64,000 nt of DNA from an uncultured Albidiferax sp. (lineage in GTDB: Bacteria; Pseudomonadota; Gammaproteobacteria; Burkholderiales; Burkholderiaceae_C): contig CAUPPH010000001.1 of NCBI GenBank assembly GCA_963513125.1, positions 386,532-450,531 of the forward strand. Direction: 5' to 3'. Below the pieces are notes generated by a model. The model made no database searches. It saw only the letters and a program-made list of their open reading frames with translations, and was not told where the DNA came from. Made by a program: the position numbers and the translations under genes. This document shows, one piece after another, positions 21,537-46,775 of this stretch; position 1 is the stretch's first letter, and every line of letters starts with the position of its first letter.

Positions 21537-21547
21537 AAATCACAGCA
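21478..21547 (-). repeat. REP-like family 1 copy inside coding sequence (spans the hypothetical/recJ junction)
   Basis: Reverse complement TGCTGTGATTTTCATAGCTGCTCCAGCCTATGGGATAAGCGCTGGGGGCTCAAAAAGCTTGA. Confidence 0.85.
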
Positions 21548-29617: not shown

Positions 29618-30103
29618 ATGGACTTCCCCCTGCACCAACTCAGCATGACGGTCTTGATGACCCCCGACATGGCCAACTTCTCCGGCAACGTGCACGGCGG
29701 CGCAGTGCTCAAGCTGCTTGACCAGGTGGCCTACGCCTGCGCCAGCCGCTACGCCGGGCGCTACGTGGTGACGGTGAGCGTGGACCAGGTGATGTTTTTG
29801 CAGCCCATCCACGTGGGCGAGCTGGTGACCTTTCTGGCCAGCATCAACCATGCAGGCACCTCGTCGATGGAGGTGGGCATCAAGGTGGTGGCCGAAAACA
29901 TCCGCGACCATGCGGTGCGCCATGTGAACAGCTGCTTTTTCACCATGGTGGCCGTGGACGACAACCGCAAGCCCGCCGCCGTGCCTCCCTTGCAGCCGGC
30001 CAACCCCGAAGAAAAACGCCGCTTCGAGCAGGCCATCCTGCGCAAGAACCTGCGCCACGAGTTGCGCAACCGGTTCAAGTCGATCAAAGAAAAATCTGAA
30101 TGA
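29618..30103 (+). CDS. Acyl-CoA thioesterase (hotdog fold, YciA-like)
   Basis: NFSGNVHGG..LKLLD motif. Confidence 0.9.
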   Translation: MDFPLHQLSMTVLMTPDMANFSGNVHGGAVLKLLDQVAYACASRYAGRYVVTVSVDQVMFLQPIHVGELVTFLASINHAGTSSMEVGIKVVAENIRDHAVRHVNSCFFTMVAVDDNRKPAAVPPLQPANPEEKRRFEQAILRKNLRHELRNRFKSIKEKSE

Positions 30104-30158
30104 AATCGGGCCCAGGCGCTTATTTCATAAGCGCAAGAAGCTACCAAATCAATAGCAA
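30098..30158 (-). repeat. REP-like family 1 copy (intergenic)
   Basis: GCGCTTATTTCATAAGCGCAAGAAGCTACCAAATCAATAGCAA. Confidence 0.9.
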
Positions 30159-30161
30159 ACG

Positions 30162-30701
30162 CTATTTGTCGATGCTGGAGCCCATGTCGTCCAGCCAGAG
30201 CACGCGGTCGGCGTAGCACTGCAGGTCGGCCGACAAGGTGGCCTGCGCGCCGTTGATCCAGACCTCTTTGCGCAGGTCGGACTTGAGGTAGGAGATGGCA
30301 TCTTCAAAGTCGCCGTCGCCCGCCGACAAGATGACGCGGTCGTAAATGCCCTGGGCGGCGAGCTTGATCATCAGGGTGGCAATCGCCACGTCCACGCCTT
30401 TTTGCACCGTGCGGTCAAACCGCGTGCCGCACGACGGGCATTGGTTGTGCTGCTCCTTGAGCTTGTACAGCTGCACGCGCATCTGCGGGCCCTTGGGCGG
30501 CGCGGACTTGATCCAGGTGTGGAAGGCGTTTTGCGCCTCGGCGTTGGGGTCGCCGGTGGAGTTGAGGTAGTAGCTCTCGTAAATCGGGCCGCCATTGGCC
30601 CGGACCAGCTCGTTTTTCAGCTTCAGGTAGTCAAAGCCGTTGGGACGCGAGCGGCCAAAGTTGTACATGTAGGCGGCATCGACGATCCAGACAGTTTTCA
30701 T
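30162..30701 (-). CDS. NYN-domain (LabA/DUF88, PIN-like) ribonuclease with CxxC insert
   Basis: Start reassigned to MKTVWIVDAAY; QKGVDVAI and SAGDGDF motifs; CPSCG insert. Confidence 0.85.
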   Translation of the reverse strand: MKTVWIVDAAYMYNFGRSRPNGFDYLKLKNELVRANGGPIYESYYLNSTGDPNAEAQNAFHTWIKSAPPKGPQMRVQLYKLKEQHNQCPSCGTRFDRTVQKGVDVAIATLMIKLAAQGIYDRVILSAGDGDFEDAISYLKSDLRKEVWINGAQATLSADLQCYADRVLWLDDMGSSIDK

Positions 30702-30768
30702 TAATTTCAAAGACTCCAAAGTACAAATCGCCATCCACGGCGCACAAAAAAAGGACGGTTTATTCCAG

Positions 30769-30857
30769 GAATACCGCAGAACCGGCTTTGCCGGGCTGCT
30801 GGTATTGCCCCCTGCAAGGGGGTTGGAGGCCACACGCAGTGGGCAAGCCTGGGGGTG
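30769..30857 (-). repeat. Structured repeat family 2, copy 1
   Basis: Aligns to 57393-57511 with compensatory changes; begins a few nt after the VOC gene stop. Confidence 0.8.
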
Positions 30858-30861
30858 TGCT

Positions 30862-31251
30862 TCATGTTTCGTAAAGTTCGAGGGGCAGGCCGTCGGGGTC
30901 GGCAAAAAAGGTGAAGCGTCGGCCTGTGAATTCATCGACCCGCACAGGTTCGACGATGATGCCATCCGCCTGCAGGCTGGCAATGTTGGCATCCAGATCC
31001 GCTACTACAAACGCCAAGTGCCGCAGCCCGCAAGACTCGGGCCGGGACGGGCGCGGCGGCGGGGCGGGGAACGAAAACAGCTCGATTTGCGAGCCATCGG
31101 GCAGCGCCAGATCCAGCTTGTACGACTGCCGCTCCACCCGCAGATTCTCAGTGACGATGCGCAGGCCCAGGATGCGGGTATAGAAATCTTTGGACCGCGC
31201 GTAGTCCGAGCAGATGATGGCGGCGTGGTGGAGGCGGGCGAGGTGCATCAT
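30862..31251 (-). CDS. VOC/glyoxalase-family protein (YaeR-like)
   Basis: LHHAAIICSDY..SK.FY, ELFSFP....RPS.PE.CGLRHLAF and FF.DPDGLPLELYE motifs. Confidence 0.92.
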   Translation of the reverse strand: MMHLARLHHAAIICSDYARSKDFYTRILGLRIVTENLRVERQSYKLDLALPDGSQIELFSFPAPPPRPSRPESCGLRHLAFVVADLDANIASLQADGIIVEPVRVDEFTGRRFTFFADPDGLPLELYET

Positions 31252-31261
31252 GGGCTGGAGC

Positions 31262-32632
31262 TTACCGCGCTACGGTGTCGGCTTCGCGCAAAAACTGCTG
31301 TGCGTGCCGGCGCACCCCGGCCTGCACCGCGTCCCATACACGCGGGGGGAAGTCGGCGGGCAACTGGGTTTGCACCTGTGCCAGGGCCGCGTCCACGCGC
31401 CGCACTAGGCCCTGCATCTTCGGCCACACATTCGGCGCGCCACAGCTTTGCGCCAGGGCTTGCCAATGCCGCACGCGGATTTCACCCAGCTTGTAGTGCT
31501 TGGTTTTGGCCCGTAGCGCCATGGCCAGCGTGGCTTTGTGCTCGGACACCAGATTCGGCCCCTCGCCGATGATGGGCCAGGCAGACAACACGTCGTACAG
31601 CGGGGTCAGGCCAAATGTGCCGCCCCTTTGGTGCGACAGCGAAAAGTTCTTGGCATGCCCATCGGTAGCAGCCAACAGCCAGAAGGCGAGCTGGGTCAGC
31701 GCGAAATGGGCGCAGTCGTCCGCCGCCTGCGCGCTGCCCGCCAGCACGTCCAGGCAATTGCGCATTGAGGGGCCGCCGTCGGATTCGTATTTCTTCAAGG
31801 GCGATGTGCCGGTAGCCTGGCACAGGTCCTCCTGGGGCAGCCGGGCGATCCAGGCCCCTTTGGGCGGGGTGAAACCGGGGCGGTGGGGCTTGCCATCTCC
31901 CAGGTTTTGCCAGCGCCGGTCAAAGCGCTCGACCACCAAGGCTTTTTGGGTGCCAAACCGGGCCATTTCAGTGGTGGCAATGCGCAGTCCCAGCGCCGCC
32001 ACGATCTGCGCACACAGCCATTCGTTTTCGACCGAATCGCGCATGTCGGCCCGCATATTGCCCACCAGGCCCAGGGGCAGCTTCAAGATATGGCTGGTGG
32101 GCGTGGCACCCAGCGGGCGTTGCCACGTTCCTCCAAACCGCAGCAAGGCGGTTTTCTCCTGCGCCCCGGCGATGGAGATGCGAAAGTCGCCATCGTCTTG
32201 GTGCTGGCCCAGGGGTGCATCGGTGGTTGCGGTACGCAAGATGCGTTCGACATCGGACTCGGTGAGCGGCTCGCACTCCACCCGGTTCCAGTCCTGGGGC
32301 TGTGCCCCTTCGGGCAGAATTTGCACCGCCCCCACGCAGTCACGCCCAATGGCAGCCAGCAGGTCAAAGGCCTGGGTGGACTTGGTTTTGAAGCGCGACA
32401 CCAGGCGCTTGCGGATGTCCAGACTGTCGGGCAGCAGGTTCTCGAAGTAATGGGCCACCGCTGCGCCCCGGTGTTCGCCATTACCCTCGGTAAACGGCAG
32501 CGACAAGGACAACGCCCGCCCCCAGACGGTGCGGGTCCAGAGGTCGTCGTACTGGAAGGTCTGCACCCCGTTGCGCGAGGTAGACCACACGCCCACATAG
32601 CGGCCATTCATCCACAGATGGAGTGCCGCCAT
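31262..32632 (-). CDS. hipA: HipA kinase toxin
   Basis: YFENLLPD, RISIAGAQEKTALL, DGHAKNFS and LTPLYDVLS motifs; TAATG overlap with hipB. Confidence 0.93.
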   Translation of the reverse strand: MAALHLWMNGRYVGVWSTSRNGVQTFQYDDLWTRTVWGRALSLSLPFTEGNGEHRGAAVAHYFENLLPDSLDIRKRLVSRFKTKSTQAFDLLAAIGRDCVGAVQILPEGAQPQDWNRVECEPLTESDVERILRTATTDAPLGQHQDDGDFRISIAGAQEKTALLRFGGTWQRPLGATPTSHILKLPLGLVGNMRADMRDSVENEWLCAQIVAALGLRIATTEMARFGTQKALVVERFDRRWQNLGDGKPHRPGFTPPKGAWIARLPQEDLCQATGTSPLKKYESDGGPSMRNCLDVLAGSAQAADDCAHFALTQLAFWLLAATDGHAKNFSLSHQRGGTFGLTPLYDVLSAWPIIGEGPNLVSEHKATLAMALRAKTKHYKLGEIRVRHWQALAQSCGAPNVWPKMQGLVRRVDAALAQVQTQLPADFPPRVWDAVQAGVRRHAQQFLREADTVAR

Positions 32633-32940
32633 TACCAGTCACCGTCCTGGGTGGAAGCTATGGATGGGGGCAGTGCTTCGCTGACAAAGTGCGCTTTGGG
32701 CACCGAAGCATCGCCAGCGGCCAAAGGCAGCTCCTCCAGACCCATGCGCACACCGAGGGCGGAAAAAACCCGCAGCAGTTGCTCAACGCTGATGGACAGC
32801 GGGTCGCCTTCGATGCGGGCCACACGGGCCTGGCTCAACCCCAGCTTGCCACCCAGATCCGCCTGGCTCAAACCTTTTGCATGGCGAAGCGCCCGTAGAT
32901 GCGTGGATAACTGAGAAGGGGTTTGAATTGCGTAAGCCAT
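32632..32940 (-). CDS. hipB: HipB XRE-HTH antitoxin
   Basis: Start reassigned to MAYAIQTP; LR...GLSQADLGGKLGLSQARVARIE HTH; directly upstream of hipA. Confidence 0.9.
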   Translation of the reverse strand: MAYAIQTPSQLSTHLRALRHAKGLSQADLGGKLGLSQARVARIEGDPLSISVEQLLRVFSALGVRMGLEELPLAAGDASVPKAHFVSEALPPSIASTQDGDW

Positions 32941-33021
32941 GCTGCATTTTATGCGCAATACAGCATTTTCACAACAAATGCTTAATTCAGCATAAATACA
33001 CAATATTCCCAATCAAGCATA

Positions 33022-33765
33022 TTACAGCGCCATCGCCTCCCGCACCGCAGCCAGTTGCCGCCGCGACACCATCAGCAACTCGTCCAGGCCTTGCAGCCGC
33101 ACCGCCCAGCCTTCACCCTCCTCGGGGTCGAAATGCTTTTCCAGCGCCCGCAGGGCCCGGCGGGACACCAGCGCGTTACGGTGGATGCGGATGAACACGC
33201 TGGCATGGCGCTGCTCCAGATCGCCCAGCGCGCCGTCCAGAATGTAGTGCTTGGTGACGGTGCGCACGGTGATGTACTTCAGCTCGGCTTTCAGGTACAG
33301 CACGCTGCTCAGCGGCAGTCGCTCGGTGCGGCCCCGGTCGTGGATCAGCAAGAAATCATCGGCCAAATCGGGCTCTACCGCCCTACTCATGGGCGAGAGG
33401 CGCTCTATTTTTTGTAGTGCCTGCTGCAAGCGCTCCAGACGCACAGGTTTGGTCAGGTAGTCCACCGCCTCCACCTCGAACGCCTGTAGCGCATACCCGG
33501 CGTGGGCGGTGACGAACACCACGGCGGGCGGCGGGGTCTGGCCACGCAGCACCTGGGCCAGGTGCACGCCGTCCATGCCGGGCATGTGGATGTCGAGCAG
33601 CACCACATCGACACCCTGGATTTGCAGCAGCGCCAGGGCCTGCTCGGCGTTGGCCGCCTCGCCCGCCACTTCGGCGGAGGGCGCGGTGCAGTCGCCCAGC
33701 AGGGTACGCAGGCGGGAGCGGGCCAGCGCTTCGTCGTCCACGATCAACACGCGCAAGGTCTTCAT
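33022..33765 (-). CDS. algR: LytTR-family response regulator (AlgR-like)
   Basis: VDDE, LLDIHMPG and AVDYLTKP receiver motifs; LytTR F.RIHRNALV; paired with AlgZ-like kinase next to argH. Confidence 0.88.
   Translation of the reverse strand: MKTLRVLIVDDEALARSRLRTLLGDCTAPSAEVAGEAANAEQALALLQIQGVDVVLLDIHMPGMDGVHLAQVLRGQTPPPAVVFVTAHAGYALQAFEVEAVDYLTKPVRLERLQQALQKIERLSPMSRAVEPDLADDFLLIHDRGRTERLPLSSVLYLKAELKYITVRTVTKHYILDGALGDLEQRHASVFIRIHRNALVSRRALRALEKHFDPEEGEGWAVRLQGLDELLMVSRRQLAAVREAMAL
33361..33418 (-). repeat. REP-like family 1 copy inside the algR linker
   Basis: Coding strand ACTACAAAAAATAGAGCGCCTCTCGCCCATGAGTAGGGCGGTAGAGCCCGATTTGG. Confidence 0.7.
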
Positions 33766-34796
33766 ACCGGAATCTCGATACGGACAAGATAGACGCCATC
33801 TTTGAACGTGGCCTGGAACTGGCTTTGCATATCGTGCAGCAAGTTCAGGCGGTCGCGCACGTTGTCCAGCGCCAGGCCGTGGCCGGGCACGCCTTGGCCG
33901 CCAGGGACGGTGTTGGTGATTTTGATCACCACGGTGCTACCCCGGCGCTCGGTGGAAATACGCAAGTCTGCCCCGCTGGCACTGGGCTCCACGCCGTGCT
34001 TCACCGCGTTCTCTACCAGGGGCTGCAGCAGCAACGGTGGCAACTGGGCCGTGGCGGCGCGTGGGTCCAGCGCCCAGTGGATGCGAAGCCGCTCGCCAAA
34101 ACGCACCTGCTCGATGGACAGGTAGCGCTCGGCCAGCGTGGTTTCGGCGGCCAGCGTGACGGACTCGCCCTGGTCTACCAGCGCGTGGCGGAACAGGTCG
34201 CTCAGGTCTTCCAGCAAGGCCTCGGCCTTGGCGGGCTCGGCGCGCACCAGGGCGATGGCGCTGTTCAGAGTGTTGAACAAGAAATGCGGGCGGATGCGGG
34301 CCTGCAGCTCGCCCAGCCGCGCCGTGGTGGCCGCCGGGGTGCGGGCCCGGGCACGCAGCACCAAACCCGCCACCACCAGGGCCGACAGCCAGGCCCCGGC
34401 CGCCGCGCTGGCCAGCCAGGGCACGGGGTCGAGCAGGCCAATCAAGGCCAGCATGCCGCAGCCGTACAGCCCGGCCAGCGCACCCAACACCACGCCGGCC
34501 AGGTTTTGTGCGTGCTGCGGCAGGCGCGCCAGCGGGCGTTTCAGGCTGCACGCGGCCAGCAACCACACCAGCACGGCGGGCAGCGCGCCGCCGGTCCACA
34601 GCGCCAGCCGCGTCAGCCAGTCCCAACTGCTCTGCGCGCCAAACAAGGCCGCCACCGCCACGGCCACTTCCACAAACAGCACCGCGCGCAAGATCACACC
34701 CGCCTGGCAGGCATCGAACACCAGCGCCGTGCGGGGCGGCGGTACGGGCGCGGAGGCCAGTGGCTGGAAGCCCGATAAAATTTGCGGTTCTTGCAT
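33762..34796 (-). CDS. LytS-type sensor histidine kinase (AlgZ/FimS-like)
   Basis: LQARIRPHFLFNTLN, E.YL.IEQ.RF and LQPLVENAVKHG motifs. Confidence 0.9.
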   Translation of the reverse strand: MQEPQILSGFQPLASAPVPPPRTALVFDACQAGVILRAVLFVEVAVAVAALFGAQSSWDWLTRLALWTGGALPAVLVWLLAACSLKRPLARLPQHAQNLAGVVLGALAGLYGCGMLALIGLLDPVPWLASAAAGAWLSALVVAGLVLRARARTPAATTARLGELQARIRPHFLFNTLNSAIALVRAEPAKAEALLEDLSDLFRHALVDQGESVTLAAETTLAERYLSIEQVRFGERLRIHWALDPRAATAQLPPLLLQPLVENAVKHGVEPSASGADLRISTERRGSTVVIKITNTVPGGQGVPGHGLALDNVRDRLNLLHDMQSQFQATFKDGVYLVRIEIPV

Positions 34797-34861
34797 ACCA
34801 GCCGATTATGGGGAAGTTGATCCCCGCTGGTACGCCACCTCTTCCCATCTGGTAATCCTGC

Positions 34862-36265
34862 ATGTCTTCCCACAACCAACTCGACAAAAAATCCGAAGCC
34901 TGGTCGGCGCTGTTCTCCGAGCCCATGAGCGACCTGGTCAAGCGCTACACCTCCAGTGTGTTTTTTGACAAGCGCCTGTGGCAGGCCGACATTGCAGGCA
35001 GCCTGGCCCACGCCGAGATGCTGGCCGCGCAGGGCATCATTGCCGCGCAGGACCATGCCGACATCCAGCGCGGCCTGGCGCAGATCAGTGGCGACATCGA
35101 ATCGGGCAACTTCGAATGGAAGCTGGACCTGGAAGACGTGCACCTGAACATCGAAGCCCGCCTGACCCAGCTGGTGGGCGATGCGGGCAAGCGCCTGCAC
35201 ACCGGACGTTCACGAAACGACCAGGTCGCCACCGACGTGCGCCTGTGGCTGCGCGGCGAAATGGATTTGATCCAGGGCCTGTTGACCGACCTGCAACTGG
35301 CCCTGGTGGCCATTGCCGACAAAAACGTGGAAGTGGTGATGCCCGGCTTCACCCACCTGCAGGTGGCCCAGCCGGTGAGCTTTGGCCACCACATGCTGGC
35401 CTATGTGGAAATGTTCGCCCGCGATGCCGAGCGCATGCTGGACGTGCGCAAACGGGTGAACCGCCTGCCGCTGGGCAGTGCCGCCCTGGCCGGCACCAGC
35501 TACCCGCTGGACCGTGAGCGCGTAGCCAAAACCTTAGGGATGGAGGGCGTGTGCCAGAACAGCCTGGATGCCGTGAGCGACCGCGACTTCGCCATCGAAT
35601 TCACCGCCGCCGCCAGCATCGCCATGGTGCACATCAGCCGCCTGAGCGAAGAGCTGGTGCTGTGGATGAGCCAGAGCTTTGGCTTCATCGACATTGCCGA
35701 CCGCTTTTGCACCGGCTCCAGCATCATGCCGCAGAAGAAAAACCCCGACGTGCCCGAGCTGGCGCGTGGCAAGACGGGCCGCGTGGTCGGCCACCTGATG
35801 GGCCTGATCACCCTGATGAAGGGCCAGCCCCTGGCCTACAACAAGGACAACCAGGAAGACAAGGAGCCGCTGTTCGACACCGTGGACACCCTCAAAGACA
35901 CGCTGCGCATCTTTGCCGAAATGGTCGGCGGCATCACCGTCAAGCCCGAAGCCATGGAGCGCGCCGCCCTGCGCGGCTACGCCACCGCCACCGACCTGGC
36001 CGACTACATGGTCAAAAAAGGCCTGCCCTTCCGCGATGCCCACGAGGTGGTGGCCCACGCGGTGAAGGCGGCGATTGCCAAGGGCGTAGACCTGTCCGAG
36101 CTGCCACTGGACGTGCTGCAAGGCTTCAACGCCAAGATCGAGCAAGACGTGTACGAATGCCTGAGCCTGCGCGGCTCGCTGAACGCCCGCAACATCCTGG
36201 GCGGCACCGCCTGGGCCCAGGTGCGGGCACAGATCGCCCGCCACCGGGCGCGCCTGGTCGCATAA
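34862..36265 (+). CDS. argH: Argininosuccinate lyase
   Basis: [22 protein letters not shown] and [12 protein letters not shown] signatures. Confidence 0.97.
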
Positions 36266-36269
36266 GTTT

Positions 36270-36333
36270 TACTACGTAATTGATAGCTGCTTGCGCATAT
36301 GCAATAAGCGCTGGCGGCCTAAATTACCTGATA
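36270..36333 (+). repeat. REP-like family 1 copy (left edge of the Zorya operon)
   Basis: ACTACGTAATTGATAGCTGCTTGCGCATATGCAATAAGCGCTGGCGGCCTAAATT. Confidence 0.9.
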
Positions 36334-36334
36334 A

Positions 36335-37102
36335 ATGTCTGTGCGCAGGAATTTCAGCAGTTCCCCACTCGTCCGCTGGCTTGGTGACCTCGATAACCCC
36401 GAGGCTGCGGTCGTGGGCGCAGTCATGGGTGGGGGGGACGTACCGCGCCAGGACGTTGCGCAAAAACTGAGCCAGTGGGTGGGCGTGTTCGAGTCGGTCA
36501 CGCTGCACGCGGCGCACCAATCGGTGGGTACGGTGGCGGATACCAGTGCAAAGCATATGCCGCCAGACCAGGTTGCCGCACTGCAGGCGCAGTGCCGCCA
36601 GGTGCAACAGACGCTGGTGCGCGCCATCGAGAAGCCCGAGGCGGCAGATACCGGCGCCCGGCGTGGCCGCCATCCGCTCAACCAGCCCGAGCCGCCCCCG
36701 GCCGCCGAAGTGGACTTTGCCCCGTACCGCCAGCATTACCTCGACCAGCAACGCAACATGAAGCTGATGGTGGGCTCCTTGCGCCACCAGCTGCGACAAA
36801 CCCTGGCCCAGGCCTCCCCCGCGCTGCGGCAGTTGGCGACTTTGGACGCAGTGTGGGAGCAACTGCTGGAAGGCCACGCACAAAAACTGCTGGCGACCGT
36901 GCCGGTGCGGCTGCAGCGGCGGTTCGAGCATTTACGCAAGCTGCACACGCAGCCCCCCGCACAAGACGCGTCCCTGTGGCGGCAACCGGGCGGCTGGCTG
37001 CATGGCTTCAACAAGGAACTGCAAGCGGTTTTGCGGGCCGAGCTGGACGTGCGGCTGGAGCCGGTGTGGGGCTTGATGGAAGCACTCAACCTAGATGAAT
37101 GA
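36335..37102 (+). CDS. DUF3348-like protein, Zorya type III ZorF-like
   Basis: First gene of the four-gene operon; recalled DUF3348 segments (FAPYRQHY, ELDVRLEPV.GL.EAL). Confidence 0.7.
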   Translation: MSVRRNFSSSPLVRWLGDLDNPEAAVVGAVMGGGDVPRQDVAQKLSQWVGVFESVTLHAAHQSVGTVADTSAKHMPPDQVAALQAQCRQVQQTLVRAIEKPEAADTGARRGRHPLNQPEPPPAAEVDFAPYRQHYLDQQRNMKLMVGSLRHQLRQTLAQASPALRQLATLDAVWEQLLEGHAQKLLATVPVRLQRRFEHLRKLHTQPPAQDASLWRQPGGWLHGFNKELQAVLRAELDVRLEPVWGLMEALNLDE

Positions 37103-39341
37103 AAAAGTACCAATGAACAGAATTGTTTTTGCAATGGCCTTTGCCATCGGTCTGGCGACCGTGGCCTGGGTGGGGATGGGTTTTGTCGGCGTGAGCTGGC
37201 TGGCCCTGGCCATGACCGTGGCGATTGGCGCGGTGTATGTGCTGGGGGCGTGGGAGGTCCAGCGCTACCGGGTCGCCACCACGGCGTTGGCAACCGCGCT
37301 GACCCATGTGGCGGAACCGACAGCCTTGGGTGTGGCCGCCTGGCTGGAACGTGTGCCCGCGGCCCTGCGCCATCCGGTACGCCTGCGCATCGAGGGTGAA
37401 CGGGCCGCCCTGCCCGGCCTGGCGCTCACGCCGTACCTGGTGGGGCTGCTGGTGATGCTGGGCATGCTGGGCACCTTTCTGGGCATGGTGGTGACCTTCA
37501 AAGGGGCGGTTTTTGCCCTCGAAGGCTCTAGCAACCTGGAAGCCATCCGTACGGCGCTGGCGGCACCCATCAAGGGGTTGGGGCTGTCGTTTGGCACCTC
37601 GGTGGCCGGGGTTGCCACCTCGGCCATGCTGGGCCTGTTGTCGGCCCTGGGGCGGCGCGAGCGGCTGGACGTGGTGCGCCAGCTCGACAGCTTGGCGGCC
37701 ACGGTTTTCCGCCCGTTGTCACAGGCCCACCAGCGCCAGGAAGCCTTCAAGGCGCTGCAGGTGCAAGCGCAGACTCTGCCCGAAGTGGTGGACCGCCTGC
37801 AGGCCATGGTGGACGGGCTGGAGCGCCGTAGCGCACAACTCAACACCCAGCTACAGGGACAGCAAGAACACCTCAGTACGCAGTTGCTGGAGCAACAGGC
37901 GCATTTCCACCGCGATGTCAGCGGGGTCTACACCCAACTGGCCCAGTCCGTAGGCACCTCGCTGCAAGACAGCCTGGTGGCCGGGGCCAAAGCGGCGGGC
38001 GAGAGCCTGCAGCCGGTGGTACAGGCCGCCATGGCAGAGATCGCGCAGGAATCCACCCGCTTGCACCAGCGCGTGCTGGATGCCACACAGGCGCAAATCA
38101 GCGGCCTGACCTTTGAGCTCGGCAGCACGGCGCGCAGCGTGGGCGATGGCTGGGCCACGGCGCTGCAGCAGCATGCGCGCAGCAGCGAAGCCCAGGTCGC
38201 CCAGCTGGGCCAGACGCTGGCCAGCTTTAGCACCACGTTTGAACAGCGCTCCGCAACGCTGCTGGCCACCGTGCACGAGGCCGCCGCCGCATCGCAAAGC
38301 CAGCAGGTGGCAGCCGACCAGCAACGGCTACAGGGCTGGACGCAGGCGCTGGAAGCCATGGCCACCCAGCTGCAGGGCGAATGGCAGCGCGTGGGTGCCC
38401 AAACACTGGCCGACCAGCGCTCCGCCAGCCTGTCGCTGGCACAAGCCGCCAGCGACATCACCGACCGTACCAGCCAGCAGGTCGGCCAGACGATGGACGG
38501 GTTGGCCGGGGTGCTGGCCCGGTCCGAAGCCCTGGTGCAGTCGCGCACCGAGACGGAAGCCCGCTGGGCCGCGCAGCAAGGCGAGCGCATGGACCAACTG
38601 GCTGCGTTGTGGCGCAGCGAACTCGGTGCGCTGCGGGCCGAAGAAGCCAGCCGTGGAGTGGCTGCCGTAGAGCGCCTGGACGCACTGCAGACCGCACTGG
38701 CCAGCCACCTCGCCACGCTGGGCACGGCGCTGGAAGCCCCCATGACCCGGCTGATGCACACCGCCGCCGAGGTGCCGCAAGCCGCCGCAGGCGTGATCAC
38801 CCAACTGCGCCAGGAAATGACCCGCCTCAGTGAGCGCGACAACCTGGCTTTTGAAGAACGCTCCAGCCTGCTGGAGAAAATCAGCACGTTGCTGCAGCAC
38901 CTGAACCAGGCATCCAACGCGCAGCAGGCGGCAATCGAGTCGCTGGTGGCCTCGGCCGCCACGGTGCTGGACCAGGCCGGCCAGCAGTTTGCCAACACCC
39001 TGGGCACCCACGCGGGCCAAGCGGCGGATGTAGCCGCCCATGTGGCGGGCAGCGCGGTAGAACTGGCCAGCCTGGGAGAAGCCTTCGGCCACGGGGTGCA
39101 ACTGTTCAGCACCAGCAACGAGAAGCTGATGGACAGCCTGCACCGCATGGAGGGCAGCATCGGCCAGTCGGTGGCGCGCAGCGACGAGCAACTCGCCTAC
39201 TACGTGGCGCAGGCCCGCGAGGTGATCGACCTGAGCATCAGCTCACAGCAAGGCCTGGTGGAAGACCTGCGTAGTCGTGGCAGCAGTCGCAGCAGCAAGC
39301 CCGCCGTATCCGCCGCATTGGCCAAAGAGAGCGTGGCATGA
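37095..39341 (+). CDS. zorA: ZorA-like (DUF802) MotA/TolQ/ExbB membrane protein with long coiled-coil tail
   Basis: N-terminal TMs, GMLGTFLGM and GLGLSFGTSVAG channel helices, then ~550 aa of Ala/Gln/Leu-rich helical tail. Confidence 0.8.
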   Translation: MNEKVPMNRIVFAMAFAIGLATVAWVGMGFVGVSWLALAMTVAIGAVYVLGAWEVQRYRVATTALATALTHVAEPTALGVAAWLERVPAALRHPVRLRIEGERAALPGLALTPYLVGLLVMLGMLGTFLGMVVTFKGAVFALEGSSNLEAIRTALAAPIKGLGLSFGTSVAGVATSAMLGLLSALGRRERLDVVRQLDSLAATVFRPLSQAHQRQEAFKALQVQAQTLPEVVDRLQAMVDGLERRSAQLNTQLQGQQEHLSTQLLEQQAHFHRDVSGVYTQLAQSVGTSLQDSLVAGAKAAGESLQPVVQAAMAEIAQESTRLHQRVLDATQAQISGLTFELGSTARSVGDGWATALQQHARSSEAQVAQLGQTLASFSTTFEQRSATLLATVHEAAAASQSQQVAADQQRLQGWTQALEAMATQLQGEWQRVGAQTLADQRSASLSLAQAASDITDRTSQQVGQTMDGLAGVLARSEALVQSRTETEARWAAQQGERMDQLAALWRSELGALRAEEASRGVAAVERLDALQTALASHLATLGTALEAPMTRLMHTAAEVPQAAAGVITQLRQEMTRLSERDNLAFEERSSLLEKISTLLQHLNQASNAQQAAIESLVASAATVLDQAGQQFANTLGTHAGQAADVAAHVAGSAVELASLGEAFGHGVQLFSTSNEKLMDSLHRMEGSIGQSVARSDEQLAYYVAQAREVIDLSISSQQGLVEDLRSRGSSRSSKPAVSAALAKESVA

Positions 39342-39985
39342 CCGGCGCCGATGGCCTGGACGGTATCGACGACGACAGCATCGCGCAGGCCGCGCCGGTA
39401 TGGGCAGTGTTTGGCGACCTGATGGCGGGCCTGCTGGGCGCGTTTGTGCTGATCCTGGTGGGTGTGCTGGTGGTGCAAATGGACCTGGTGGCCAACCTGC
39501 AGGCCGAGGTGGGCAAGCGCCAGGCGGAAGAGCAGCGCCGCATGGCGCTGGAAAAAGCCCTGGCCATTCCGCTGGCGGCAGGCCGGGTCACGCTGAACAA
39601 CGGCCGCATCGGCATCAGCGGCAATGTGCTGTTCCCGGTCAACTCCGACCAGTTGCGCCCTGAAGGGCAGCAACTGCTGAAAAGCCTGGTACCGGCGTTG
39701 CAGTTGGTCCTGGGTGAGCGCGACGACATGATGATGGTCAGCGGCTTCACCGACGACAAACCCATCGTGGATGGCAACCAGCGGTTTGCCGACAACCTGG
39801 AGCTGTCGGCCCAGCGCGCCCTCAAGGTGACCCGTGCGCTGATCGATGAAGGCATGCCCTCGTCCAAGGTGTTTGCGGCGGCATTCGGTGCCGAGCAGCC
39901 GGTGGCCTCCAACACCAGCGAGCAGGGCCGCGCACTGAACCGGCGCGTGGAAATGGCCCCGGTGCCCCGGTCTGCCAAGCCATGA
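39338..39985 (+). CDS. zorB: ZorB-like MotB/OmpA-domain protein
   Basis: Single TM with conserved Asp (FGDLMAGL), then OmpA-like domain (GFTDD, NLELSAQRA..V, NRRVE). Confidence 0.82.
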   Translation: MTGADGLDGIDDDSIAQAAPVWAVFGDLMAGLLGAFVLILVGVLVVQMDLVANLQAEVGKRQAEEQRRMALEKALAIPLAAGRVTLNNGRIGISGNVLFPVNSDQLRPEGQQLLKSLVPALQLVLGERDDMMMVSGFTDDKPIVDGNQRFADNLELSAQRALKVTRALIDEGMPSSKVFAAAFGAEQPVASNTSEQGRALNRRVEMAPVPRSAKP

Positions 39986-40560
39986 GCGAGCCGGGAGCGC
40001 CGCCGTCGCTACAGTCGTTGCGCAGCACCGATGCCCAGCGACTCGACCCGACACGCTTCCATTACCTGGAAGTGCTTTCGCGCCGCGCGGGCGCGGCAAC
40101 GGGCGCGCTACAGCCGATTTTGCAGGCCAAGCTGGACACGGCATTGGCCGACTACAGCCAGCGCTTGGGGCAGGCGCAGGGCCTGCGCCGACCCGTTTCA
40201 AACAGCGGCGCTGGGCCTTTGGCCGAACTGAACCACTACATCCGCCGCACCACGCAGCAAAGCCACCACCACGGACCCCGGCCAGAGCTGAAAAGCGTGC
40301 GCGGTTTCCGCGAGGTGTGGTCCAAAATCGCCGCCATCGACCACATGGACCAGGCCATGGTGCGCGGCCCTGAAAACGCCGGTCCGCTGAATCCCCACAT
40401 GCTGGTGCTGCGCTCCCTGGCGCTGATGCGCCAGCTATCGCCCGACTACCTGCAGCGTTTTCTGTCGCATGTGGACTCGCTGCTGTGGCTGGACCAGGAA
40501 AACCAGAAACACACACCGGCAGAGGCCAAGCCCGCGCGCAAGAGTCGGTCCAAGAAATAG
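39982..40560 (+). CDS. DUF2894-like protein, Zorya type III ZorG-like
   Basis: DP.RFHYLE.L.RR and P.NAGPLN...LVLRSL..MR.LSP.YL.RF.S.VDSL.WL; ATGA-coupled to zorB. Confidence 0.72.
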   Translation: MSEPGAPPSLQSLRSTDAQRLDPTRFHYLEVLSRRAGAATGALQPILQAKLDTALADYSQRLGQAQGLRRPVSNSGAGPLAELNHYIRRTTQQSHHHGPRPELKSVRGFREVWSKIAAIDHMDQAMVRGPENAGPLNPHMLVLRSLALMRQLSPDYLQRFLSHVDSLLWLDQENQKHTPAEAKPARKSRSKK

Positions 40561-40561
40561 T

Positions 40562-40578
40562 CTTAAGTTCCGCCTAAG
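40562..40578 (+). promoter_or_regulatory. QseB/PmrA-type direct-repeat box
   Basis: CTTAAG-N5-CCTAAG upstream of the OmpR-family regulator. Confidence 0.55.
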
Positions 40579-40601
40579 CCAAAAAAACACATACTCACGG
40601 C

Positions 40602-41261
40602 ATGCGCTTGTTACTGGTAGAAGACGACCCCATGATCGGTGAGACCGTGCTCGACGTGCTGCGCGCCGAGCATTTCGCCGTGGACTGGGTGAAAGACGGA
40701 GTGATGGCCGACACCGCCCTGCGCAGCGCGCCCTACGACCTGGTGCTGCTTGACCTGGGCCTGCCCCGGCGCGACGGGCTGGACGTGCTCAAAGCCCTGC
40801 GCCAGCGCAAAGACAGCACCCCGGTGCTGGTGGTCACCGCCCGCGACGCGGTGGCCGATCGCATTGCCGGGCTGGATGCCGGGGCCGACGACTACGTGCT
40901 CAAACCCTACGACATCGACGAGCTGCTGGCCCGCATCCGCGCCCTGACCCGGCGCAGCGCTGGCCGAGCCGACCCGGTACTGGAAGTGCACGGCCTGCGC
41001 CTGAACCCTGCTACCTTTGAGGCCACCCGCGACGGCCAGCCTGTCACCCTCTCAAAACGCGAATGGGCCGTGCTGGAAGCGCTGATGGCCCGCCCCGGCG
41101 TGGTGTTCTCGCGGGCGCAACTGGAAGAAAAGCTCTACAGCTGGAAAGACGACGTGAGCAGCAACGCGGTCGAGGTCTACATCCACGGCCTGCGCAAAAA
41201 GCTGGGGGCCGAGCTGATCCAGAACGTGCGCGGCCTGGGCTACGTGATGCCTCGGCCATGA
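40602..41261 (+). CDS. OmpR-family response regulator (QseB/PmrA-like)
   Basis: VEDD, LLDLGLP, GADDY.LKP and SNAVEVYIHGLRKKLG motifs. Confidence 0.92.
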   Translation: MRLLLVEDDPMIGETVLDVLRAEHFAVDWVKDGVMADTALRSAPYDLVLLDLGLPRRDGLDVLKALRQRKDSTPVLVVTARDAVADRIAGLDAGADDYVLKPYDIDELLARIRALTRRSAGRADPVLEVHGLRLNPATFEATRDGQPVTLSKREWAVLEALMARPGVVFSRAQLEEKLYSWKDDVSSNAVEVYIHGLRKKLGAELIQNVRGLGYVMPRP

Positions 41262-42595
41262 ACTCGATACGCCGCCGCCTGCTGGGCTCGGTGATGACCG
41301 CCATCCTGGTGGCCGCGCTGTTCCAGGCTGCATCGGCCTACCGCGGTGCGCTGCAGCAGGCCGATGAAATGTTCGACTACCACCTGCAGCAAATGGCTTT
41401 TGCGCTGCGCAATGGGGCACTGCGCCAAAGCGCGCCCGAAGCCCCCTTTGATGCCGACTACGAGGTGCAGATCTGGAGCGCAGACGGCGTGCAGTTGTTC
41501 CAGTCGCATATCAACCGCCTGCCGCCGCAAGCGGTGCTGGGCTTTTCGGACGTGGAACAAAACGGCACGCGCTACCGCGTCTACTCCATCCAGACCCCAG
41601 CGCAAACCATCCAGATCGCCCAGGACCTGAGCGCCCGCCAGGCCCGCGCCCGGGCCCTGGCCGTGCGCGCCATGCTGCCCATGGCCGCCATGGCGCCGCT
41701 GCTGATGATGGCGCTGTGGTGGGCCATCCGCAGCGCCCTGAAGCCCCTGGAGCGCACCCGCCAGCAGGTGGCCGCCCGCGCGGTGGACGACCTGTCGCCT
41801 CTGCCCGAAGCCGACCTGCCCGACGAGGTGCTGCCGCTGGTGCGCGAGCTGAACCTGCTGTTTGGCCGGGTGCACACCGCCTTCGATGCCCAGAAATCCT
41901 TTGTGGCCAATGCCGCGCACGAGCTGCGTTCGCCACTCACCGCCCTCAAGCTGCAGGCCCAGGCGCTGGACCGCGCCCCCGACGCGCCCACCCGCAGCAT
42001 CGCCATCGCCCGGCTGCACCAGGGCATCGACCGCGCGGTGCGCCTGATGAACCAGCTGCTGGTGCTGGCCCGGCAAGAGTCGGCCAGCGACACGCCGCCC
42101 GAGCCCATCGCGCTGCACGACCTGGTGCGCCTGGGTGTGGAAGAGGCCCTGCCACAGGCCCAAGAACGCCACATCGACCTGGGTGCGCACCTCGGCGATA
42201 CGGTGCAAGTGCAAGGCCACCCCGACGCGCTGCGCATCCTGCTGCGCAACCTGCTGGACAACGCGCTGAAGTACACGCCCGAGCAGGGCCGCGTGGACGT
42301 GGCCATCACCAGCGAGAACGGCACACCCGTGCTGACCGTGGAAGACTCCGGCCCCGGCATTGCGCCCGCCGATCTGGAAAAGGTGTTTGACCGTTTCTAC
42401 CGCAGCGCCGAAGCCACAGCAGGCGGCAGCGGGCTGGGCCTGGCGATTGCCCAGGCGATTGCCCAGGCGCACGGCGCGAAACTGCGGCTGGACGCATCCC
42501 CCACGCTGGGCGGATTGCGGGTAGCGCTGGTATTTACAAGCCCGCCAGCAGCTCCGCAAACGCCTGCGACCGGCCCTGGCGCGAAGCATTCTTGA
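41258..42595 (+). CDS. Sensor histidine kinase (QseC/PmrB-like)
   Basis: Start reassigned to MNSIRRRLL; AAHELRSPLT, NLLDNALKY, DSGPGI and GSGLGLAI motifs. Confidence 0.92.
   Translation: MNSIRRRLLGSVMTAILVAALFQAASAYRGALQQADEMFDYHLQQMAFALRNGALRQSAPEAPFDADYEVQIWSADGVQLFQSHINRLPPQAVLGFSDVEQNGTRYRVYSIQTPAQTIQIAQDLSARQARARALAVRAMLPMAAMAPLLMMALWWAIRSALKPLERTRQQVAARAVDDLSPLPEADLPDEVLPLVRELNLLFGRVHTAFDAQKSFVANAAHELRSPLTALKLQAQALDRAPDAPTRSIAIARLHQGIDRAVRLMNQLLVLARQESASDTPPEPIALHDLVRLGVEEALPQAQERHIDLGAHLGDTVQVQGHPDALRILLRNLLDNALKYTPEQGRVDVAITSENGTPVLTVEDSGPGIAPADLEKVFDRFYRSAEATAGGSGLGLAIAQAIAQAHGAKLRLDASPTLGGLRVALVFTSPPAAPQTPATGPGAKHS
42521..42558 (-). repeat. REP-like family 1 partial copy in the convergent kinase/GT4 overlap
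   Basis: Reverse complement GGAGCTGCTGGCGGGCTTGTAAATACCAGCGCTAC. Confidence 0.5.
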
Positions 42596-43766
42596 CGACC
42601 GCGGGGTCGGGCAAACGCACCGCCTGGGCCCGCACATCGGCCACAAACTGCGGCAACAGGGCGGCAATCTCGTCGGCCGAGTCGATGCGCGCCATGGCCT
42701 CCAGCCCGGCACCGCGCAGCACACCCGCGGTGTCGCCCACCGGATCGGTCAGGCCGAGGATAGGGCGGCCTGCGCGCAGGTATTCGTAAATCTTGGCGGG
42801 AATCTGGGCATTGCAGTTGCTGGCCTGCATGACCAGCAAGGCATCCACCGACAGCATTTCCGCCAGGGCCTCACGGTAGGACACGGCGGGGCTGAGTTCG
42901 ATGAAGTCCTGCACGCCGTACTGGGTGGCCAACTGGGTCAGCATGTCGTCATGGGCCGAGGCGCGAAAGCGAATTTGCAACTGCCGGGCCGTTAACGCCC
43001 CGCTGGCCTTCAGGCGCTGCAAAGCCTGGAACAGCTGGGTCGGGTCGCGCTCGGACGGGTAGACGATGCCGCTGTGCAGCAGCACCACGGGCTGGTCGCC
43101 GGTCAGCGGGCGGGGCGCCACGGCAGGTGCATGGGCAAAGCTTTCTTCGTCATAGCCGTTTTCCAGCACAGTGATGCGGCTGGCGGCCTGGGGATAACGC
43201 TCGCGGTACATCTGCGCTGCGCCAGGGGTGGTGAAGACGCTGCGGCTGGCCTGCTCCACCGCTTCTTGTTCGATGCGCTGGTAGCTGCGCCAGGTGATGG
43301 GGTCGGCGGGGTAGCCGTCTTGCGCCATCGGGTCGCGGAAATCGGCAATCCAGGGCAAACCCGTCTTCTGGTGCAACTGCTGGGCGATCACGTGGGCGGT
43401 GGCAATCGGGTAGGTAGACCAGATCGCATCGGGCTTGAATTCCTTGATGAGTTGCAGGCCTTGGCGCACCGCGTCAAAGCGCCAGCTGATCCAGCGGTCG
43501 GGCCGGGCCATCCAGCCCATGTAGCGGCCCTGGATGTTCAGGTGCCGTGCGGTGTCAAGGGCAAAGGCGCGGCGCACCACGGTGCCCTCGGGCACGTCGT
43601 TCATCAAATCGGGGCTGGTGCGCTCATAGGCGCGCGGGTCGGCGGTCAGGACCACCGGCTTCCAGCCCAGCGCGGGCAGGTGCTGCACAAAGCGCAAGGT
43701 CCGCTGGATACCACTGCTGCCCGCCAGCGGCGGGAAGTGGTAGGCGATCATCAAAACTGTTTTCAC
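42534..43766 (-). CDS. GT4-family glycosyltransferase
   Basis: GTG start MKTVLMIAYHFPP; NGYDE, PAKIYEYL..GRPIL; overlaps the kinase 3' end by 62 bp. Confidence 0.85.
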   Translation of the reverse strand: MKTVLMIAYHFPPLAGSSGIQRTLRFVQHLPALGWKPVVLTADPRAYERTSPDLMNDVPEGTVVRRAFALDTARHLNIQGRYMGWMARPDRWISWRFDAVRQGLQLIKEFKPDAIWSTYPIATAHVIAQQLHQKTGLPWIADFRDPMAQDGYPADPITWRSYQRIEQEAVEQASRSVFTTPGAAQMYRERYPQAASRITVLENGYDEESFAHAPAVAPRPLTGDQPVVLLHSGIVYPSERDPTQLFQALQRLKASGALTARQLQIRFRASAHDDMLTQLATQYGVQDFIELSPAVSYREALAEMLSVDALLVMQASNCNAQIPAKIYEYLRAGRPILGLTDPVGDTAGVLRGAGLEAMARIDSADEIAALLPQFVADVRAQAVRLPDPAVVKNASRQGRSQAFAELLAGL

Positions 43767-43906
43767 ACGGGAGGCCTTGGTTACACGACTTACGCAGCGC
43801 GCCCAGCGGGCAACACAGGGCGCGCTGCGTAAGTCTTCGATTATTTCTGCTGCGAGATCATACGGGGAGAAGCGTGACACGGCATCCGGCAGAATCGCCT
43901 GCACCT

Positions 43907-45061
43907 ATGACACTGACCCCCCTTCTGCGTTACGCCCGTTTTTTAGCCTTGTGGCTGCTGCTGTGCGGGGTGGCCATGGCCCAGGGCGCTGCCAACACCC
44001 TGCAGGTCGGCCCGCAGCGAGTTATTAAAACTATAGCTGCTGCTGCCCGTCTGGCAGGCGCAGGCACCACCATCGAAGTAGATGCGGGCGAGTACGTGGG
44101 CGACGTGGCGGTGTGGACCCAGCCCAACCTGACGCTGCGCGCCGTGGGCGGGCGGGTGCGCCTGCAGGCCAACGGCATGGCGGCAGAGGACAAAGCCATC
44201 TGGGTGGTGCGTTCGCCAAAGTTCACCGTGGAAGGCTTTGACTTTGAAGGCGCGCAGGTGGCGGGCCGCAATGGCGCGGGCATCCGCTTTGAATCCGGCT
44301 GGCTGGTGGTGCGCAACTGCAGCTTCACCCACAACGAAATGGGCCTGCTCACCAGCAACCACCCCCAAGCCGTGCTGGAGGTGGAGAACAGCGAATTCGC
44401 CTACAACATGCGCCCCGACGGGCACAACCACAACCTCTACATCGGCCAGATTGCCCGTGCAACTGTTACCGGCAGTTACCTGCACCACGCCCGCACCGGC
44501 CACCTGCTGAAAAGCCGTGCGGCCATCAGCCAGATTCTGTACAACCGCCTGACCGACGACGGCGGCAGCGCCAGCTACGAGCTGGAGTTTCCCAACGGCG
44601 GCGTGGCGACAGTGCTAGGCAACACCATCCAGCAGGGTCCGTTGACCGAAAACCCGGCGCTCATCTCCTTTGGGGCCGAGGGCTACACCTGGCCCGTCAA
44701 CCAGATCAGCCTGGCCTACAACACCCTGGTGGACGACCTGCCCAGCGGCGGCATCTGGCTGAAGGTCAAACCCGGAGCCGACGCGGTGCTGGCCGTGAAC
44801 AACCTGCTGGTCGGCACCGCGCCGCTACAGGCCACCGCGCCGGACGACTTTCGCAACAACTTCCACACCGACCGCAGCAGCTTTGCGCCCGGCGGCGACT
44901 ACCGGCTGCGGGCGGGCTCACCGCTGCGGGGCCAAGCCATCGCCCTGGACCATGGACTGCAAGTGCGGCGTGAATACAGCCACACAGCCAAAAGCATCCC
45001 CCTGGGCAATGCCCCGCATAATCCCGGGGCGATGCAGCGCCTGCTGGCGCGCCAGCCCTGA
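43907..45061 (+). CDS. Exported pectin-lyase-fold (right-handed beta-helix) protein
   Basis: Signal peptide; GEY.GD, NGAGIRFE, HNLYIG and GHL.KSRA repeats. Confidence 0.75.
   Translation: MTLTPLLRYARFLALWLLLCGVAMAQGAANTLQVGPQRVIKTIAAAARLAGAGTTIEVDAGEYVGDVAVWTQPNLTLRAVGGRVRLQANGMAAEDKAIWVVRSPKFTVEGFDFEGAQVAGRNGAGIRFESGWLVVRNCSFTHNEMGLLTSNHPQAVLEVENSEFAYNMRPDGHNHNLYIGQIARATVTGSYLHHARTGHLLKSRAAISQILYNRLTDDGGSASYELEFPNGGVATVLGNTIQQGPLTENPALISFGAEGYTWPVNQISLAYNTLVDDLPSGGIWLKVKPGADAVLAVNNLLVGTAPLQATAPDDFRNNFHTDRSSFAPGGDYRLRAGSPLRGQAIALDHGLQVRREYSHTAKSIPLGNAPHNPGAMQRLLARQP
44021..44065 (+). repeat. REP-like family 1 copy inside the beta-helix gene
   Basis: GTTATTAAAACTATAGCTGCTGCTGCCCGTCTGGCAGGCGCAGG with atypical AT-rich codons. 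Confidence 0.6.
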
Positions 45062-45086
45062 TATTTTTGCTTTCTACGCCTCCACT

Positions 45087-46775
45087 ATGTCCTCACACAC
45101 CCCCTCCCTGGCATCCCTGGTACTTGGCAGCCCCCGCTTTACCGATGCCCGCCTGGCCGCCATCGCGAGCACCGACGGCCCGCTGGCCGCCTGGCAAGCC
45201 GCCTGCGCGGCCGATGCCAGCAGTGCTGCGCTACAGGCCACGGGCGACTTTGCGGTGGGGCTGCAAGAGCCCTCGGGCCGCACGTTTTTGGCGGTGGACC
45301 GCTTTGCCATCCGCAGCCTGTGCTACCGGGTGGTGGACGGGCAGATCCGCTTCGCGGGCCGTGCCGACGCATTGGCCGACGGTGCCGACATCGACCCGCA
45401 GGCCATCTTCGACTACCTGTACTTCCACGCCATCCCCTCGCCGCGCACCATTTTCAAAGGCGTGTTCCGCCTGCCGCCGGGCCACTACGCGCTGTTTGAG
45501 CAGGGCAAACTGACCGTCGCGCCCTACTGGGTGCCCACCTTTATCGAGCCGCGCAGCGCCTCGTTCAGCAGCCTGCGCGAAGAGTTCCGCGGCCTGGTGC
45601 GCACCGCCGTCAACGCCCAGCTCGACGGCGGCACAGCTGCCTGCTTTTTGAGCGGCGGCACCGACAGCTCCACCGTGGCCGGCATGCTCAGCGAAATCGG
45701 CGGCAAGCAGGGCCAGAAAGCCGCCACCTACTCCATCGGTTTCGATGCCGAGGGCTACGACGAGATGGAATACGCCCGGTTGGCCTCGCGCCACTTCAAC
45801 ACCGAGCACCACGAGTACTACGTCACCCCCGACGACCTGGTGCGCAGCATTGCCGACGTGGCCCGCTCCTACGACCAGCCGTTTGGCAACTCGTCCGCCC
45901 TGCCCTCGTACTACTGCGCCCGCAAGGCCAAGGACGACGGCGTGACCAAAATCCTGGCCGGAGACGGCGGTGACGAGCTCTTTGGCGGCAACAGCCGCTA
46001 CGCCAAGCAGCGCGTGTTTGGCTGGTACGACATGCTGCCCAGCGGCATCCGCAGCGGCCTGATGGAGCCGGTGCTGGCCAAGACCGCCGAGAGCAGCATC
46101 TCCCTGCTGAGCAAGGCCTCCAGCTATGTGGAGCAGGCCAAGGTGCCGCTGCCCGACCGCCTGCAGATGTACAACCTGCTGCTGCGCCTGGGTGTGAACG
46201 ACGTGCTGACCCCGGCGTTTCTGGCCCAGGTCAACATCCAGGGCCCGGCCGAGCAGCAGCGCGGCATCTGGAACCTGCCCACCACCGGCAGCCAGCTCAA
46301 CCGCATGCTGGCCTTCGACTGGCGCTACACCCTGGCCGAAAGCGACCTGCCCAAGGTCTGCGGCACCACCCGGCTGGCGGGCCTGCACGTGGGCTTTCCC
46401 ATGCTCAACGAGGCGCTGCTGGACTTCTCGCTCAAGCTGCCGCTGGAGTACAAGCTCAAGGGCCTGAAGCTGCGCTGGTTCTTCAAGGAAGCCCTGCGTG
46501 GCTTCCTGCCCGACGAAATTTTGACCAAGAAGAAACAGGGCTTCGGCCTGCCCTTCGGCGTGTGGGCCACCCGCCACGACGGCCTCAGAGCAGTCGCCAC
46601 CGACTCGCTCAACAGCCTGGCCACCCGCAACATCGTGCGCCCCGAGTTCATCCGCAGCCTGCTGACCGAGCGGCTGCAGGAACACCCCGGCTACTTTGGT
46701 GAGATGGTGTGGATTTTGATGATGCTGGAGCAGTGGCTGCAGGCGCATGCGCCGGAGTTCAAGATGCCGGGTTAA
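45087..46775 (+). CDS. Asparagine-synthetase-related amidotransferase lacking the N-terminal Cys
   Basis: Start reassigned to MSSHTPS; FLSGGTDSS PP-loop, AGDGGDELFGG and KKKQGFGLP motifs. Confidence 0.85.
   Translation: MSSHTPSLASLVLGSPRFTDARLAAIASTDGPLAAWQAACAADASSAALQATGDFAVGLQEPSGRTFLAVDRFAIRSLCYRVVDGQIRFAGRADALADGADIDPQAIFDYLYFHAIPSPRTIFKGVFRLPPGHYALFEQGKLTVAPYWVPTFIEPRSASFSSLREEFRGLVRTAVNAQLDGGTAACFLSGGTDSSTVAGMLSEIGGKQGQKAATYSIGFDAEGYDEMEYARLASRHFNTEHHEYYVTPDDLVRSIADVARSYDQPFGNSSALPSYYCARKAKDDGVTKILAGDGGDELFGGNSRYAKQRVFGWYDMLPSGIRSGLMEPVLAKTAESSISLLSKASSYVEQAKVPLPDRLQMYNLLLRLGVNDVLTPAFLAQVNIQGPAEQQRGIWNLPTTGSQLNRMLAFDWRYTLAESDLPKVCGTTRLAGLHVGFPMLNEALLDFSLKLPLEYKLKGLKLRWFFKEALRGFLPDEILTKKKQGFGLPFGVWATRHDGLRAVATDSLNSLATRNIVRPEFIRSLLTERLQEHPGYFGEMVWILMMLEQWLQAHAPEFKMPG

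Follow-up and report, generated by a model that had tools for sequence, protein, structure and literature searches.

A predicted Zorya type III operon in a variable slot beside argH of an uncultured Albidiferax species

Genes of the zorGABF locus

The DNA analyzed here is a 64,000-nucleotide stretch (the window) from an uncultured Albidiferax species, and its positions 36335-40560 carry four genes that resemble the Zorya type III antiphage system. Zorya type III was defined as zorAB flanked by genes for DUF3348 and DUF2894 proteins, with 6,401 instances recorded (Payne et al. 2021, NAR, PMC8565338). In the window, the order DUF3348-ZorA-ZorB-DUF2894, with all four genes on the + strand, corresponds to the canonical zorGABF order (Hu et al. 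2024, Nature, PMC11946911). Successive open reading frames (ORFs) overlap by 8, 4, and 4 nucleotides (nt) in the ORF listing, such that the zorG stop overlaps the zorA start and the zorF start overlaps the zorB stop, an arrangement that fits translational coupling.

Each product matches the expected family in Pfam, with E-values of 4e-64 for DUF3348, 6.5e-12 for DUF802 in ZorA, 1.8e-17 for OmpA in ZorB, and 5e-49 for DUF2894. The type III models of PADLOC are matched over nearly full length by all four proteins (ZorG3, 1e-65; ZorA3, 1.4e-241; ZorB3, 7e-104; ZorF3, 1e-60), and the type I and type II models for ZorA and ZorB in the same database score far more weakly. The locus therefore combines a ZorA3-type subunit, a ZorB3-type subunit, a DUF3348 protein, and a DUF2894 protein in the type III gene order. 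A preliminary description of this DNA had proposed a complete Zorya type III operon, and the PADLOC check agrees with it. Judged from sequence, positions 36335-40560 very probably represent a complete, intact Zorya type III (zorGABF) system of a Comamonadaceae member; the names carried by homologs point to a Rhodoferax/Albidiferax-like organism.

We follow PADLOC-DB in naming the partner proteins. The literature is in conflict on this point: DUF3348 is ZorF and DUF2894 is ZorG in Payne et al. 2021 and Mariano et al. 2025, whereas the PADLOC-DB 2.0 models and the "zorGABF" order of Hu et al. 2024 use ZorG for DUF3348 and ZorF for DUF2894.

Table 1. Features in and around the operon, with positions in the window
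Feature	Position	Strand	Length	Assignment or remark
zorG	36335..37102	+	255 aa	ORF listing, Pfam DUF3348, PADLOC ZorG3
zorA3	37095..39341	+	748 aa	Pfam DUF802, PADLOC ZorA3
zorB3	39338..39985	+	215 aa	Pfam OmpA, PADLOC ZorB3
zorF	39982..40560	+	192 aa	Pfam DUF2894, PADLOC ZorF3
argH-zorG spacer	36266..36334	+	69 nt	One copy of a genome-wide REP-like palindromic repeat
argH	34862-36265			Upstream flank
OmpR-family response regulator gene	40602-41261			Downstream flank, followed by a histidine kinase gene
HipA-like toxin kinase gene and short upstream ORF	31262-33012		456 aa and 126 aa	2.2 kb upstream of argH

The zorA3 product consists of a MotA-like membrane head (approximately residues 1-190) followed by a helical cytoplasmic tail of ≈560 residues that includes a DUF802 unit and is rich in Ala, Gln, and Leu. 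Hydropathy places hydrophobic segments at approximately residues 8-55 and 104-142, and a further transmembrane-like stretch can be picked out by eye near residues 160-185. The PADLOC ZorA3 match spans residues 7-731, and the ZorA1 and ZorA2 models reach only 1e-8 and 5e-5, respectively. PADLOC describes its ZorA3 model as MotA/ExbB/TolQ-like, a remote relation; the NCBIfam antiphage_ZorA_2 match is weak (1.5e-5), and Pfam MotA_ExbB finds no match in the protein at E<=0.01. Across the family (homologs in genomes G001-G223), the open frames of ZorA3 are between 591 and 1276 residues long, and even among congeners they span 725 to 1235. In the longer proteins, the profile segment at approximately 380-510 matches several times, over ≈70-130 residues each, so that tail length varies with the number of units.

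The single transmembrane segment of ZorB (residues 19-56) contains Asp27 within an FGDLM motif, the counterpart of which in the alignment with a solved chain related to MotB is FsDLM. The protein also has an OmpA-like peptidoglycan-binding domain and exceeds the cut-off of NCBIfam PRK09040 with 341 bits. Its matches in the PDB are the peptidoglycan-binding domains of MotB and PomB, and the whole protein also matches EcZorB (8qyd_F, 9e-5). The ZorA-like helices with a long tail and the ZorB-like transmembrane Asp with a peptidoglycan-binding domain, both pointed out in the preliminary description, were thus seen again.

Relative to the type III system characterized previously (PMC8565338), we find the same four families in the same order and on one strand, overlapping genes, the long ZorA tail, and the ZorB transmembrane Asp with its OmpA-like domain. 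There is no difference in kind from the tested system, and the copy described here is of a Comamonadaceae lineage. The resemblance to Zorya type I (EcZorI, zorABCD, PDB 8qyd) is confined to the motor core, as reflected in the ZorA1 model and EcZorB matches. Both systems have the ZorAB core, with the transmembrane Asp at D26 in EcZorB and D27 here, a peptidoglycan-binding domain, and a long-tailed ZorA (≈739 residues in E. coli, according to a cited deletion mutant, and 748 here). Unlike type I, however, the locus has neither ZorC nor the ZorD nuclease and in their place encodes a pair of small, helical proteins that lack an enzyme fold.

Partner proteins and the output step

ZorG is predicted to be cytoplasmic and all-helical, with a conserved N-terminal RRNFSSS..LVR.LGD motif, a flexible linker modeled at low confidence, and a helical bundle; no hydrophobic segment appears in its hydropathy profile. 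The AlphaFold2 model is of fair confidence (predicted local distance difference test score, pLDDT, 80; predicted template-modeling score, pTM, 0.74) and contains helices only. Because the first 16 residues of the 255-residue form are kept across 92 homologs, this start is the better call. The entry for the DUF3348 protein in a public protein collection has 229 residues and starts 26 codons downstream (36335-36412 region).

ZorF is likewise predicted to be cytoplasmic and helical. Comparison of 84 homologs reveals a P.N.GPLN.H motif that is invariant (residues 130-139), and the C-terminal tail is basic and conserved. Its AlphaFold2 model is of low confidence (pLDDT 61, pTM 0.32), and the most conserved motif falls in a low-confidence stretch, which, together with the basic C-terminus, would fit a protein that folds on a partner.

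Structural searches of the PDB with Foldseek yielded generic helical bundles for both proteins, with a best E of 0.12 for ZorG (nothing better than 0.1) and 1.2 for ZorF, and sequence-profile searches of the PDB with the two proteins gave nothing below E 0.39. A DUF2894 profile search of 1.8 billion representative proteins returned 2175 clusters at 50% identity; in the best 150 of these, no domain fusion is seen, and all are stand-alone proteins of 183-303 residues. As judged by these models and profiles, neither ZorG nor ZorF has a recognizable enzyme, nuclease, helicase, or DNA-binding fold, consistent with the earlier remark that the two proteins lack a recognizable nuclease.

In types I and II, ZorAB works as a motor of 5:2 stoichiometry that is powered by protons, responds to perturbation of the envelope, and uses the ZorA tail for signaling (PMC11946911; Mariano et al. 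2025, PMC11890865), and it is for the ZorAB cores of these two types only that structures have been solved (PMC11946911, PMC11890865). By analogy, ZorA and ZorB of the present system would assemble in the inner membrane as a rotary motor, 5:2 in stoichiometry and driven by protons. Upon disturbance of the envelope by a phage, the domain of ZorB would grip peptidoglycan, protons would pass Asp27, and the ZorA pentamer would turn, with its tail relaying the signal to the cytoplasm. Since the DUF3348 and DUF2894 proteins are small, helical, and without an enzyme fold, gating or coupling of the motor would be a more likely role for them than DNA cleavage.

In the literature that we searched, no account of the type III output step was found. 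In E. coli, the system of Stenotrophomonas nitritireducens DSM 12575 reduces plaque formation and, in liquid culture, gives protection only at a multiplicity of infection (MOI) below 0.1 (PMC8565338). A self-limiting output fits protection that is confined to such an MOI. Most likely, although with odds somewhat short of even, type III ends in uncontrolled proton flux or another self-limiting effect that halts the cell and protects the population. This step is much less certain than the identification of the system as type III.

The main alternative, which is less probable, is direct immunity, in which the motor would recruit the DUF3348 and DUF2894 proteins to the site of injection and block phage DNA entry or replication while the cell survives. 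Type I Zorya acts directly in this fashion, recruiting soluble partners to the activated motor, and the basic C-terminal tail of ZorF and its invariant motif, located in a region predicted to be disordered in the protein alone, are what would be expected of a binding interface. The lack of a nuclease, helicase, or DNA-binding fold in either partner speaks against this possibility, however, as does the restriction of the published protection in liquid culture to low MOI.

The slot in related genomes

Upstream of the operon lie the HipA-like gene, a LytS/LytTR-type two-component pair, and argH; downstream are the OmpR-family response regulator (RR) and histidine kinase (HK) genes, a GT4 glycosyltransferase gene, and an asparagine synthase gene. 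The preliminary description had placed the operon between argH and qseBC. The argH flank stands, but the RR and HK both fall below NCBIfam equivalog cut-offs, so the pair is best described as only QseBC/PmrAB-like at the sequence level. The 126-residue ORF upstream of the HipA-like gene is presumably HipB-like; the HipA gene is kept in four syntenic relatives and was not found at that position in genome G002. An Rfam scan of positions 30000-46000 detected no family. The host-like codon style described earlier is borne out, as the GC content at third codon positions of the zor genes (0.78-0.84) brackets the genome median of 0.81 and both GC and codon usage are genome-typical; nor are there mobility genes among those checked within ≈5 kb on either side.

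The argH-zorG spacer is occupied by a repetitive extragenic palindromic (REP)-like repeat with a core of TTGATAGCT, followed by a GC-rich GCGC...GCGC hairpin with an ATGGAAT-like loop and often a T-run thereafter. The spacer RNA folds into a stable hairpin (-20.9 kcal/mol, z -2.6). Genome-wide, the repeat seed is seen 121 times where ≈24 would be expected, and within the window it is seen 13 times where 3.9 would be expected; other window copies are at 21521-21537, 59036-59052, and ≈10 more sites. The family as a whole comprises ≈100 genome copies, mostly intergenic, and apparently is the "family-1" repeat noted at recJ and gltB in the preliminary description. All four syntenic relatives retain the spacer, and genome G008 has a related copy at its empty site. 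We also considered the repeat as a general flank of Zorya III, but no adjoining copy is present at 12 other loci outside the close clade.

ZorA3 is found in 14 of 15 congeneric species, with no match in the G002 genome. Only four of these species (G004, G005, G007, and G015) have the argH-zorGABF-RR/HK arrangement in common with the genome studied here, with protein identities of 84-98%. In the remaining ten, the copies show 47-86% identity, lie elsewhere in the genome, and have no such RR/HK pair beside them. What lies between argH and the RR gene varies accordingly among congeners: G008 has only usp, a universal-stress-protein gene, and no insert; G002 has usp and a jacalin/galactose-oxidase-like gene; G003 has a PAS-MCP chemoreceptor gene; and G010 has TctC-like, DUF1330, and PAS-MCP genes. 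In G002, the closest relative without Zorya, the cargo (L031:6293-9273) is convergent with argH and consists of a jacalin-lectin ORF (613 residues) directly followed by a galactose-oxidase-like ORF (378 residues); the two may belong to a single gene that a stop codon interrupts.

Junction alignments show the order argH, repeat, zorGABF, repeat, usp, RR in G007 and G004. In the genome studied here, as well as in G005 and G015, usp has been cleanly deleted, as seen when positions 40561-40601 of the window are compared with L016:12304-13025 and L019:6854-7572; G007 and G004 retain usp. The deletion accounts for the zorF-RR spacing of 41 nt. Its end points differ slightly among genomes, and its distribution is at odds with the tree of the flanks, a hint that these species have recombined with one another. 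Because the RR/HK pair lies beside argH-usp without an insert in G008, it predates the cassette and is not part of it. The pair was likewise rejected as a Zorya component on the grounds that it is not conserved beside Zorya III elsewhere and is present without Zorya. The slot that holds the cassette, between argH and usp/RR-HK, is variable in content, and the cassette itself has the behavior of accessory DNA.

Depending on the species, the slot holds Zorya III, a lectin/oxidase-like gene, or nothing, and repeat copies bracket Zorya in G007 and G004. An improbable extension of these observations is that the argH-usp gap serves as a site of cassette exchange that operates without mobility genes and has the REP-like repeat copies as its marks. 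As part of the same improbable reading, transcription may, after the usp deletion in the genome studied here, also read through from the cassette into the QseBC-like regulator genes, which would couple defense to envelope signaling.

Within the syntenic clade, the zor genes and their flanks have diverged equally at synonymous sites (dS of 0.16-0.26 and 0.16-0.30, respectively), and the ratio of nonsynonymous to synonymous divergence (dN/dS) is 0.08-0.26 with all four genes under purifying selection. These values indicate, from sequence comparison, vertical descent of the cassette under purifying selection since the ancestor of the clade. In a tree of the 5.2-kb flanks, the Zorya-less G002 groups with G015 (89.7/85 support), inside or beside the syntenic clade, a grouping that favors, although not firmly, loss or replacement of Zorya in G002.

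The origin of the cassette appears to be distinct from that of the neighboring copies. In the argH tree, the clade is nested among carriers of the other Zorya lineage, with G011 and G014 as sisters (97/93). In the tree of the ZorA head and ZorB, by contrast, the other-lineage species group together to the exclusion of the clade (100/100), which sits on its own long branch (100/100). Protein identities are similarly discordant, at 98% for argH (a partial gene) and 62% for ZorA in G013 and 88% and 69%, respectively, in G010. Because of this discordance, the cassette of the clade is probably a replacement by another Zorya III lineage rather than an ortholog of the neighbors' copy, although argH is only a single-gene proxy for the species tree. 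No close donor lineage was found, as no ZorB exceeds 86% identity outside the clade among 201 family genomes. Nor is there a remnant of the other congeners' Zorya locus in the genome studied here; the conserved upstream flank of that locus is on contig C7, and its far side is not syntenic.

Across the family, ZorA3 is present in 52 of the 201 sampled species (26%), and ZorB3 likewise. ZorA3 matches fall within one stretch of a single contig in each genome, except for a copy in G195 that is split over two contigs, and each ZorB3-bearing genome has one ZorB3 match. Such patchy presence and locus turnover is the usual pattern of defense cassettes.

Alternative roles and significance

The preliminary description had also suggested that the operon is long resident and possibly domesticated for envelope sensing. 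Residence of the cassette does go back to the ancestor of a small clade, but this is no evidence of a new role, and a domesticated envelope-stress sensor that cooperates with the adjoining QseBC/PmrAB-like two-component system, or is under its control, seems quite unlikely. Such a role would be in keeping with the tight zorF-RR spacing and with the absence of a + strand terminator in our scan from argH to the kinase gene (in which no consensus promoter was found either), as well as with the host-like composition, the purifying selection, and the prevalence of ZorA3 among congeners. The spacing, however, stems from a usp deletion that is absent in G007 and G004. The RR/HK pair, moreover, occurs beside argH-usp without Zorya in G008 and beside other cargo in G002, G003, and G010, and synteny of the cassette extends to four relatives only. 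With the Zorya III of the remaining congeners belonging to a different lineage at other loci, away from the pair, with no ZorA3 match in G002, and with only about a quarter of sampled family species carrying the system, the claim of domestication is not supported.

The least probable alternative is an ordinary MotAB/ExbBD/TolQR-type stator for motility or outer-membrane transport with the DUF genes as incidental neighbors, for although ZorB has the MotB-type transmembrane Asp motif and OmpA-like domain, ZorA has its long tail and no Pfam MotA_ExbB match, the type III-specific hidden Markov models win at 1e-104 to 1e-241, the four overlapping genes stay together in 17 of 17 related loci examined, and ZorA3 and ZorB3 are equally frequent. 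The assignment to ordinary MotAB/ExbBD by such models, which the preliminary description had named among the grounds for abandoning Zorya, is not what we observe. Like the MotAB/PomAB flagellar stator, the motor pairs a transmembrane Asp motif with an OmpA-like peptidoglycan anchor, and a 5:2 rotary architecture would be common to both. Unlike that stator, it has a long cytoplasmic tail, no match to the MotA/ExbB/TolQ channel family, and an obligatory linkage to DUF3348 and DUF2894 genes, and there are no flagellar, TonB, or Tol/Pal genes adjoining the cassette.

We therefore regard the operon as an ordinary accessory cassette of an already known and tested system rather than a domesticated housekeeping machine. 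Several observations weigh against this interpretation or against the self-limiting output proposed above. The presence of ZorA3 in nearly all congeners is high for a defense system. No other recognized defense gene lies beside the cassette, the sole nearby candidate being the HipA-like toxin gene. With no + strand terminator between argH and the cassette or between the cassette and the RR/HK genes, co-expression with housekeeping genes is possible. The low confidence of the ZorF model makes the lack of an enzyme fold a weak argument for that protein, and the abortive reading of the output extends the result of a single heterologous experiment, that with the Stenotrophomonas system.

Taken alone, one more intact copy of a system already recognized by standard tools adds little. 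Structure prediction and a library-wide profile search present partner proteins without an enzyme fold and without fusions in the best 150 matches, so that annotation cannot settle the way in which type III stops phages. What the locus does offer is a clean natural series at one chromosomal site, consisting of an empty slot, Zorya III with usp, Zorya III with usp deleted, and replacement by another gene. This series is useful for the study of how defense cassettes turn over without visible mobility genes.

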